23,715 bases of DNA, from assembly GCA_038046605.1 (NCBI GenBank), contig JBBSVW010000027.1, positions 1 to 23,715 on the forward strand. Reading direction: 5' to 3'. The stretch is from Candidatus Micrarchaeota archaeon (GTDB lineage Archaea > Micrarchaeota > Micrarchaeia > Norongarragalinales > SBBD01). Below, one piece after another: positions 6,072 to 21,440 of the stretch (positions are counted from its first letter, which is position 1; the number at the start of each line of letters is the position of its first letter). A model generated the notes under the pieces. That model did no database searches, was not told where the DNA came from, and saw only the letters and a program-made list of their open reading frames with translations. A program made the translations under genes and the position numbers.

Positions 6072-6087
6072 AATGGGGTCACGGGGA

Positions 6088-6273
6088 TTTTCTGCCTTGC
6101 CCCTTTCTTTCAAAAAGAAAGGTGCGATGGCTCCGCGCCAAAGAAACAATTAGTTCGCGAATCAAAACCTTTTTCTTTTGCGGCGCCACCGCTTTTCTTT
6201 TTTGACCTAGCAGACAAAGTCTGCGAGGCCGCAAAGAGCCATATAAGCTCTTTTCGGAAAAGAAAAGCAAGGC
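6088..6273 (-). other. tRNA-Trp T-loop intron (position ~59/60, 186 nt)
   Basis: Removal restores the TTCGAAT loop. Relaxed BHB: TTCG-AA|G-CCTTGC pairs with GCAAGG-C(A)GAA-AA|T. The exact junction is ambiguous by 1-2 nt because of A runs. Confidence 0.85.
6094..6151. repeat. 58-bp dispersed repeat, copy 1 (in tRNA-Trp T-loop intron)
   Basis: 57/58 identical to 21011-21068 in the same orientation; the only difference is 6132 T vs 21049 A. Confidence 0.97.
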
Positions 6274-6294
6274 TTCGAACCCCGATCCACAGGT

Positions 6295-6423
6295 ATCTTC
6301 GAACCTTTCTTGGGAAGAAAGCTTCACCAAAGAAAAGTCATTTCTTGCTCGTCATTATATCCGAGCTCCAACATTGCCATCATCGTCCCCGTTTAGGGAC
6401 TCAAAATACCCGAAATTAAGAAT
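6295..6423 (-). other. tRNA-Trp anticodon-loop intron (canonical 37/38, 129 nt)
   Basis: CTCC-AG|A ... GAAG-AT|A BHB-like junction with one mismatch in the 4-bp helix; removal restores the 7-nt anticodon loop. Confidence 0.9.
6349..6412 (-). ncRNA. Intron-encoded box C/D guide RNA for 2'-O-methylation of tRNA-Trp C34 and C39
   Basis: Guide CGGGTATT plus D' TTGA (6404-6401) puts the fifth nucleotide upstream of the box opposite C39. Guide TTGGAGCT plus D CGGA (6363-6360) puts it opposite C34. C' ATGATGG (6383-6377), C ATGACGA (6355-6349). These are the same targets as the known euryarchaeal tRNA-Trp intron guide. Confidence 0.85.
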
Positions 6424-6660
6424 CTGGAGCCTATTGTTCTACCAGGTTATACTATGACCCCATAAAGCCCTTCGAACAATTCCACAAGAGTATGGCAAGA
6501 AGCATTAAAAAACAAAACGGCGATGAAAATAGCTAGGCAATTTCTCATGGTGCGCAAATAGGATTAGGCGCATTTGCAGATTTAGGCTTGGATTTTGGAA
6601 TATGCAATTGATAAAACCCGCCATCATGATTATTCGGATAACTTATTGAAGGTAAACCAT

Positions 6661-20845: not shown

Positions 20846-21003
20846 ATTGATCAGCTTTACTTATCTGAAAATAAGGGTTAATAAGCGTGGCGAAAAGGTG
20901 CAAAAAACAGGCAAATGGGGAGAGGGATTGAATGGATGAACGCGGCCAGTATCGCGCCTCTTTTCCACGCTCAAAGGAATAAGAATAAATGGGGGCGCTG
21001 AGA

Positions 21004-21113
21004 TTTGAACGCCTTGCCCCTTTCTTTCAAAAAGAAAGGTGCGATGGCACCGCGCCAAAGAAACAATTTGATTTGCGAATTAAATAGCTTCATTAGCGGC
21101 GCTTAAGGCAGGC
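21004..21113 (-). other. tRNA-Pro T-loop intron (position 58/59 or 59/60, 110 nt)
   Basis: Removal restores TTCAAAT; intron ends pair (GCCTGCC / GGCAAGGC); GTTCAAA occurs at both junctions, so the exact boundary is ambiguous. Confidence 0.85.
21011..21068. repeat. 58-bp dispersed repeat, copy 2 (in tRNA-Pro T-loop intron)
   Basis: 57/58 identical to 6094-6151. Confidence 0.97.
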
Positions 21114-21150
21114 TTTGAACTCAGATCAACAGCTCCCAAAGCTGTCAGCA

Positions 21151-21236
21151 TGCCGGATCCCCTTTCTGTTCTCCCAAGACAAAAGCCCTTTTCTTTGAAC
21201 CCAAGGGCCTTTCTTTTCCGGGAAAAGAAAGGGGCT
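21151..21236 (-). other. tRNA-Pro D-loop intron (position 21/22, 86 nt)
   Basis: BHB-type junction CTGG-TA|A ... CCGG-CA|T, with central helix CTGG/CCGG and intron stem CCCCTTTCT/AGAAAGGGG. Confidence 0.88.
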
Positions 21237-21440
21237 TACCAGGTTGGCCCACGCCCCCAAAACCTTATCATTTGGGGAATGGGATTTTTTAAGCGCTTTG
21301 AATGCTTAAAAAATGCATAAAATGGCGCGGATAGCTAAAATTGGCATTAGGGCGCAAGGTTACAATTAGGGGAATGAATGCATTATCGCCAAACGAAGAA
21401 AAAATATAAAAAAAGGGAAAGAAGAAAGAAAGGAAAAGGC

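Follow-up and report, generated by a model that had tools for sequence, protein, structure and literature searches.

A predicted box C/D methylation guide with a displaced box C in a tRNA-Trp intron of DPANN archaea

Introduction

Can a box C/D RNA guide methylation when its box C stands on the far side of box D? The question is raised by a tRNA-Trp gene in a 23,715-nt stretch of Micrarchaeota DNA, the whole of which is referred to here as the window. In the published accounts, to the extent they were available, the tRNA-Trp intron in Haloferax volcanii, as well as in other Euryarchaeota, is a box C/D RNA that guides modification of C34 and U39. The H. volcanii intron is described there as trans-acting, as a stable circle and as dispensable under standard conditions. 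The intron in the window carries guides for the same two positions, but it differs from the standard linear order C-guide-D'-C'-guide-D with a terminal stem joining boxes C and D. Judged from its sequence, this DPANN tRNA-Trp intron holds a real, conserved box C/D guide of non-canonical layout, which probably directs methylation of C34 and C39.

Results

The tRNA-Trp gene is interrupted by two introns

The window is archaeal, as it encodes SecF, SecD, two MetE-like proteins, RNase HII, an archaeal LeuRS, SRP54 and Rrp42. The RNase HII gene adjoins the tRNA-Trp gene. The latter, with anticodon CCA, occupies 6461-6074 on the minus strand and, as read from the sequence, is interrupted by two introns (Table 1). 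The 5' exon terminates in CTCCAG, and the 3' strand of the anticodon stem is found 129 nt downstream. The T-arm is broken after TTCGAA, and its remaining half is located together with the acceptor 3' strand and A73 at 6087-6074. Both introns (6423-6295 and 6273-6088) were cut from the window sequence in silico, and the spliced product folds in ARAGORN into a regular 73-nt tRNA-Trp(CCA) cloverleaf. With intron 2 alone removed, ARAGORN reports a 129-nt intron at the canonical site. In addition, the 396-nt precursor folds much better than its own shuffles (z = -6.6).

The unspliced gene is called neither by ARAGORN, run by default or with introns allowed, nor by Rfam at the gathering threshold. 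Such guides are probably under-annotated in uncultivated archaea, since tRNA and sRNA finders miss the gene entirely. Some overlapping calls were rejected. At a relaxed threshold, ARAGORN places a "tRNA-Arg" at 6261-6473 whose acceptor pairing takes bases of intron 2, whereas the true 3' end is the 6087-6074 segment. An 83-codon open reading frame (6079-6330, minus strand), contained wholly in the interrupted tRNA-Trp gene, matches no family and is almost certainly an artefact. Opposite intron 2, a match to Rfam ctRNA_p42d (6116-6181, plus strand) is composed of A/G-rich and U/C-rich runs and scores 24.3 bits where the gathering threshold is 50 (E = 0.005 in a search of 461 nt). It was also taken as spurious.

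Table 1. Elements of the interrupted tRNA-Trp gene in the window
Feature	Positions	Strand	Basis or remark
Exon 1 (tRNA positions 1-37; C34 = 6427)	6424-6461	-	ARAGORN cloverleaf after in-silico splicing; identical to L007, L014, L110
Intron 1, canonical 37/38 position, 129 nt, guide-bearing	6295-6423	-	ARAGORN with intron 2 removed
Leader, 10 nt	6414-6423	-	Sequence reading
Closing helix, 5' strand TTCTT	6418-6422	-	Pairs with 6346-6342
C39 guide, paired part	6405-6412	-	8 bp: last 3 intron nt and tRNA positions 38-42
Box D', TTGA	6401-6404	-	Invariant, 4/4
Hairpin closing the D'/C' K-turn (C-stem)	6385-6400	-	6 bp, loop of 4
Box C', GATGATGG	6377-6384	-	GATGAT invariant, 4/4
C34 guide spacer, 13 nt	6364-6376	-	8 bp with tRNA positions 30-37
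Box D, CGGA	6360-6363	-	CGGA in 3/4; CTGA in L007 with matching box C change
K-loop, 4-nt loop TATA	6356-6359	-	Gap from box D to ATGA always 4 nt
Relocated box C, ATGACGA, 3' of box D	6349-6355	-	Sole D-loop-C motif of the window
GC lengthening the non-canonical stem, then AAGAA (3' strand of closing helix)	6342-6348	-	Pairing
Lineage-specific insertion with hairpins, about 40 nt	6301-6341	-	Missing from the short L014 and L110 introns
GAAG facing C32-C35, then 2 nt (AT) before the 3' splice site	6295-6300	-	3/4 pairs; standard bulge-helix-bulge layout
Exon 2 (tRNA positions 38-59; C39 = 6293)	6274-6294	-	ARAGORN cloverleaf after in-silico splicing
Intron 2, T-loop (59/60), 186 nt	6088-6273	-	Ends pair GCCTTGC/GCAAGGC
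Exon 3 (tRNA positions 60-73)	6074-6087	-	ARAGORN cloverleaf after in-silico splicing

Intron 1 contains two guides and a relocated box C

Intron 1 is sequentially composed of a leader, the C39 guide, box D', a hairpin, box C', the C34 guide, box D, a loop and box C, read 5' to 3' on the minus strand. The box pairs were judged by the rules for K-turns. Both TTGA/GATGATGG and CGGA/ATGACGA fit a K-turn or K-loop with tandem G.A pairs. The stem flanking the D/C pair (GCTCG/CGAGC) is completely complementary in the window.

Both guides lie in the expected register. The fifth nucleotide upstream of TTGA pairs with C39, and the fifth upstream of CGGA pairs with C34. Each duplex includes two G.U pairs. 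The C39 duplex uses the last three bases of the intron, so the substrate should be the unspliced pre-tRNA. The leader cannot form a box C, because it contains no GA dinucleotide. A degenerate box C in this position is excluded for the related introns as well, all four leaders being free of GA.

The guide and box architecture is not a product of chance. A pattern describing it matches the window once and none of 100 shuffles. When the intron was dinucleotide-shuffled 20000 times, N+5 duplexes of 8 bp or more arose in 405 shuffles for C34 and in 205 for C39, and both guides attained this length together in 5. A scan of the window for further C/D-like genes found none.

Three relatives share the layout

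The 5' exon is identical over 38 of 38 positions in three Candidatus Micrarchaeota metagenome-assembled genomes (L007, L014, and L110). Their first introns, of 163, 88, and 86 nt, respectively, display the same box order as the window intron, among at least 119 loci. Pairs were listed for each sequence by script; MAFFT alignments misregistered the window hairpin and box C'. Across the four introns the boxes are kept, and divergence is seen in the leaders, hairpins and spacers. Between D' and C', the hairpin is built from different letters but is always paired: GTCCC/GGGAC in the window and GCTTT/AAAGC, GCCGC/GCGGC, and GCC/GGC in the relatives, where the stems measure 5, 5, and 3 bp. In each of the four introns, all 5 positions of the stem beneath the D/C pair are paired. 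L007 has CTGA/ATGAAGA in place of the CGGA/ATGACGA found elsewhere, a swap from G-C to U-A at the position usually occupied by U.U. Part of this conservation may stem from recent common descent, as the comparison comprises only four sequences with identical exons.

The guides differ in length. The C39 guide forms 10 bp in the three relatives versus 8 bp in the window. The C34 guide forms 7 bp in L014 and L110 and 9 bp in L007. The spacer between C' and D is 13 nt in the window, 14, 14, and 16 nt in the relatives, and 12 nt in the canonical loci inspected. A spacer of 13-16 nt rather than 12 argues against a strictly canonical, symmetric RNP and hints at a looser particle.

The missing 5' box of the C39 guide and the drift of that guide in the window raise the idea that only the C34 unit (C'-guide-D-C) is active, the C39 guide and D' being left over, in decay, from a guide that was canonical before the loss of its box C. 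Decay of this kind is very improbable, as neither D' nor C' varies, their intervening hairpin shows covariation, and the register of the C39 guide is exact in 4/4 introns, with 10 bp in 3/4.

The boxes may also be labelled in canonical fashion, with GATGATGG as C, CGGA as D', and ATGACGA as C'. This labelling requires an additional guide, a D box and a terminal stem downstream, and was rejected because the short L014 and L110 introns contain only the strand of the closing helix and 6 nt in that region. Rfam sR1, the sole C/D family matching the intron, aligns with it in the canonical labelling, but the match is not significant (E = 2.7). The physical pairings are identical under both labellings. 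The intron can also be described as an ordinary sRNA, with a loop closing its terminal stem and an opening between the C-type box and the C39 guide.

The anatomy set out in the original prediction is borne out. The spliced cloverleaf and the guide registers agree with the gene identity, the box order and the targets C34 and C39 it proposed. Its view that no C box precedes the first guide holds for the GA-free leader, and the D'/C' K-turn it called well formed has a covarying hairpin. It had also described a K-loop in which the usual U.U is replaced by a Watson-Crick pair; the flanking stem is complete, and L007 provides the U-A counterpart. The downstream box C on which the proposal depends is conserved as ATGACGA in three of the four introns and as ATGAAGA in L007. 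The span then proposed (6349-6412) does hold these elements but covers only the core of the 129-nt intron, and the second intron was not mentioned.

tRNA-Trp introns across archaea

One scan of genome contigs with a degenerate 5'-exon pattern returned at least 119 loci. Together with the window, 120 tRNA-Trp genes were classified, partly by eye: 4 are cut off by the end of the locus, 28 have no intron at 37/38, 14 contain an intron without a complement to the anticodon loop (including 6 other Micrarchaeota loci), and 74 possess a guide-bearing intron.

Among the loci listed, 56 of the 74 guide introns share the order C, C39 guide, D', C', C34 guide, D. They comprise every guide intron listed from euryarchaeal-type lineages and belong to Poseidoniales-type (26), Methanomicrobiales (12), Methanosarcinales (12), Halobacteria (2), and Thermoplasmatota/Thermoplasmata (4) archaea. 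Box C lies directly 5' of the C39 guide in 56/56 of these canonical introns, as assigned partly by eye, but not in the window. The other guide introns listed are of Bathyarchaeia type (11/74), consist of a single unit of C34 guide, box D, loop and box C (3/74), or place box C after box D (4/74: the window, L007, L014, and L110). On this classification of sequences, the displaced box C is restricted to one Micrarchaeota clade among the loci listed. The original prediction had presented the order as unusual, and among these loci C after D is indeed confined to the window and its three relatives and is not the norm elsewhere.

Since the same two guides occur in canonical order in 56 of the 74 guide introns, all from other lineages, the system is homologous to that of the window. 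The box labels used here agree with this homology, as the C39 guide uses D' and the C34 guide uses D. Within the phylum Micrarchaeota the guide appears clade-specific, because the six other loci of this phylum (L031, L044, L058, L090, L106, and L118) have neither boxes nor an anticodon complement in their introns of 34-109 nt.

The canonical group includes two Thermoplasmata introns (L010 and L033) because a degenerate box, GTGAAGT or GCGAAGT, precedes their C39 guide. In both, CGGA is located two bases further from the C34 complement, such that the N+5 base, placed by hand, would face C32 rather than C34.

The Bathyarchaeia-type introns (L032, L038, L049, L062, L077, L081, L089, L093, L099, L104, and L111) are 57-67 nt long. 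They comprise a leader, the C39 guide, CTGA, a covarying hairpin, ATGACGA, and an exact 12-nt spacer with a C34 complement. They have no box C 5' of the C39 guide and, except for GAGA in L032, no xxGA at N+5 after the spacer. In three of them, ATGAAGA directly precedes the 3' splice site. These introns may be guides with one K-turn, and they recall the box-less intron of Sulfolobus solfataricus described below.

The three single-unit introns, two from Aenigmatarchaeota (L018 and L020) and a third (L068), are 37-48 nt long and composed of a C34 complement, TTGA or CGGA, a loop or hairpin, and a C-type box. Box D precedes box C as in the second unit of the window intron, and the guides form 5-6 contiguous pairs.

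Intron-exon complementarity by itself invites a reading that involves no methylation. The box hairpins could bind L7Ae or act as folding elements that aid relaxed bulge-helix-bulge splicing, and the complements could be ordinary intron-exon pairing. An intron has to pair with the anticodon loop regardless, and the Bathyarchaeia-type C34 complement is not followed by a D box in register. Deletion of the H. volcanii intron was also without effect on growth under standard conditions, as stated in the available part of that report. Such a role alone is nevertheless very improbable: both complements in the window lie exactly 5 nt from an xxGA box, with the low joint frequency in shuffles given above, and the same two targets recur across the 56 canonical introns among the loci listed.

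A closing helix may restore the usual box order

In L110 and L014, box C is followed by GC, a purine run (GAAAAA and GAGAA, respectively), and then the last 6-7 nt before the splice site. Intron nucleotides 2 to 6 or 7 (TTTTTC and TTCTT) form the partner strand of the purine run, and the window contains TTCTT/AAGAA at the equivalent places. The resulting closing helix spans 5-6 bp in these three introns. In minimum free energy folds, it closes a three-way junction with both box hairpins, for L110 as a linear and a circular molecule and for L014 as a circular one. The helix is short and A/U-rich, is missing from the minimum free energy fold of the window intron, and is ambiguous in L007.

By its position, the closing helix is presumably the outer helix of the bulge-helix-bulge splice motif. 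The standard motif contains two 3-nt bulges separated by 4 bp and flanked by helices. These lengths fit in L110 and L014; of the central 4 bp, assigned by hand, 3 are formed in the window, 2 in L110, and 4 in L007. A relaxed motif is expected for an endonuclease of the ARMAN-2 type. The account available for this member of the Micrarchaeota describes a splicing endonuclease of broad specificity, together with numerous interrupted tRNA genes, T-loop introns among them.

Joining the intron ends places box C, through the closing hairpin, 5' of the C39 guide. Because the leader pairs with the bases immediately after box C, the usual box order would be reached only via the closing helix or in a circularized intron. 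We infer this dependence, as the original prediction did, from an anatomy that fits it.

A model can be built on the observed gene, boxes and guide registers and on their conservation and covariation. L7Ae would bind the D'/C' K-turn and the D/C K-loop (CGGA-TATA-ATGACGA), and Nop5 and fibrillarin would assemble on both. The particle would 2'-O-methylate C34 and C39 of unspliced pre-tRNA-Trp. Box C would have shifted from the 5' side of the C39 guide to a site just 3' of box D. In the precursor, the closing helix would hold box C and the C39 guide together. Excision and ligation by the tRNA splicing enzymes would then link them covalently through a hairpin, and the circular intron would read C-(hairpin)-C39 guide-D'-(hairpin)-C'-C34 guide-D-(loop) and back to C. 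Most likely, the RNP works in trans, in view of the three intron bases that the C39 guide pairs with, and has the excised intron circle as its RNA, by analogy with H. volcanii.

Protein binding, methylation, circularization and the need for the closing helix are predicted features of this model. Genes for L7Ae, Nop5, and fibrillarin are absent from the 23,715 nt of the window, and a literature search found no paper pairing Micrarchae* with fibrillarin. The guides are short, at 8 bp each in the window, and the 7-bp C34 guides of L014 and L110 likewise count against the model. Taken as a whole, methylation of C34 and C39 together with topological completion by the closing helix or the circle has about an even chance of being correct.

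The main competing explanation is that the intron consists of two autonomous modules in tandem, each with the guide 5' of its own K-turn (guide, D, loop or hairpin, C), so that the closing helix and the circle are irrelevant. One module duplicated in tandem may have given rise to this layout. Two such units in tandem do make up the intron, and single units with the C34 guide form the entire intron in L018, L020, and L068. The spacer is not fixed at 12 nt, and the closing helix is weak, being unclear in L007 and in the window fold. However, guides with no more than 5-6 contiguous pairs make the activity of the single-module introns doubtful. The short introns leave no nucleotide to spare between box C and the closing helix, an arrangement that looks constrained. 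Moreover, archaeal C/D RNPs need both box sites for efficient and specific methylation. Autonomous modules thus seem a distinctly less probable arrangement than guides completed by the closing helix or the circle, though a tenable one.

A stricter form of the circular model, in which the guide functions solely as the spliced-out circle, is rather unlikely. If it were true, the endonuclease and ligase that mature one tRNA would also complete the guide topology for the next pre-tRNA-Trp. Methylation would be obligatorily trans-acting and coupled to earlier splicing. The intron would then be the first C/D guide in nature to have its permutation resolved through tRNA splicing.

Comparison with known guide RNAs

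The window intron resembles the H. volcanii pre-tRNA-Trp intron and Pyrococcus sR50 in its location at 37/38 and in carrying two guides, to positions 34 and 39, that both lie 5 nt from a D-type box. Methanosarcinales and Halobacteria loci likewise have a hairpin separating D' from C', and circularization, expected by analogy, would be common to both kinds of intron. Unlike the euryarchaeal guide, the window intron has its box C 3' of box D in a K-loop and lacks a C/D terminal stem. The spacers of this layout are 13-16 nt instead of 12, the target at position 39 is C and not U, and the host belongs to DPANN.

Permuted C/D RNAs are in print for another DPANN archaeon. As described in the available portion of Randau 2012, the permuted sRNA24 of Nanoarchaeum equitans was detected as a circle, and its boxes follow the correct order in the circular arrangement alone; in sRNA26, box D is located upstream of box C. 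The window intron shares with sRNA24 a non-canonical linear order and a usual order found only in the circle. The N. equitans sRNAs have free-standing genes, with a circularization route given as unknown in that portion of the report, whereas the window guide resides in a tRNA intron, for which the endonuclease and ligase would supply the circle. In addition, compared with the N. equitans RNAs as described there, box C alone is displaced in the window, where the interruption lies between this box and a guide. The published N. equitans case, as far as the available text goes, lowers the novelty of the window intron and does not contradict its reading.

Two other permuted or circular RNAs are comparable. 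The SRP RNA of Thermoproteus is encoded in permuted form and restored by bulge-helix-bulge cleavage and ligation or circularization (Plagens 2015, from the part available). It belongs to another RNA class, and its circularization was demonstrated experimentally, in contrast to the predicted circle of the window intron. The accessible text of Danan 2012 describes the tRNA-Trp intron from S. solfataricus as a stable 65-nt circle with complementarity to positions 34 and 39 and without consensus C/D boxes. Compared with that description, the window intron has four recognizable boxes and a C34 guide with a D box in register.

No description of this layout in DPANN or Micrarchaeota was found in a literature search limited to text outside supplements and to terms other than "C/D". 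New in the window are the location in an intron, whose splicing pathway would provide the circle, and the joining of boxes D and C in a K-loop. The tRNA-Trp intron guide, in print for Euryarchaeota, is thereby extended to DPANN archaea, and the box layout of this old guide system appears not to be fixed. If both sites are methylated, the archaeal C/D enzyme would tolerate a guide bounded by a box on one side only, or exploit it through circularization. Such a one-sided guide bears on how the Nop5 dimer measures its guides.

Intron 2 is related to an intron in a second tRNA gene

Intron 2 of the tRNA-Trp gene has a 130-nt counterpart with similar blocks in L014 (149-278) and L007 (2223-2352), and none was found in L110. 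A second interrupted tRNA gene is located at 20990-21258 on the minus strand of the window. Its anticodon loop, identified by eye as TTGGGAG, looks like that of tRNA-Pro(GGG). It contains introns in the D/anticodon region and in the T-loop, and ARAGORN detects it only at a relaxed threshold and miscalls it. The segment 21011-21102 is of particular note. The T-loop intron of this gene shares 87% identity over 95 nt with the 3' half of intron 2 of the tRNA-Trp gene, suggesting a spreading or duplicated intron family.
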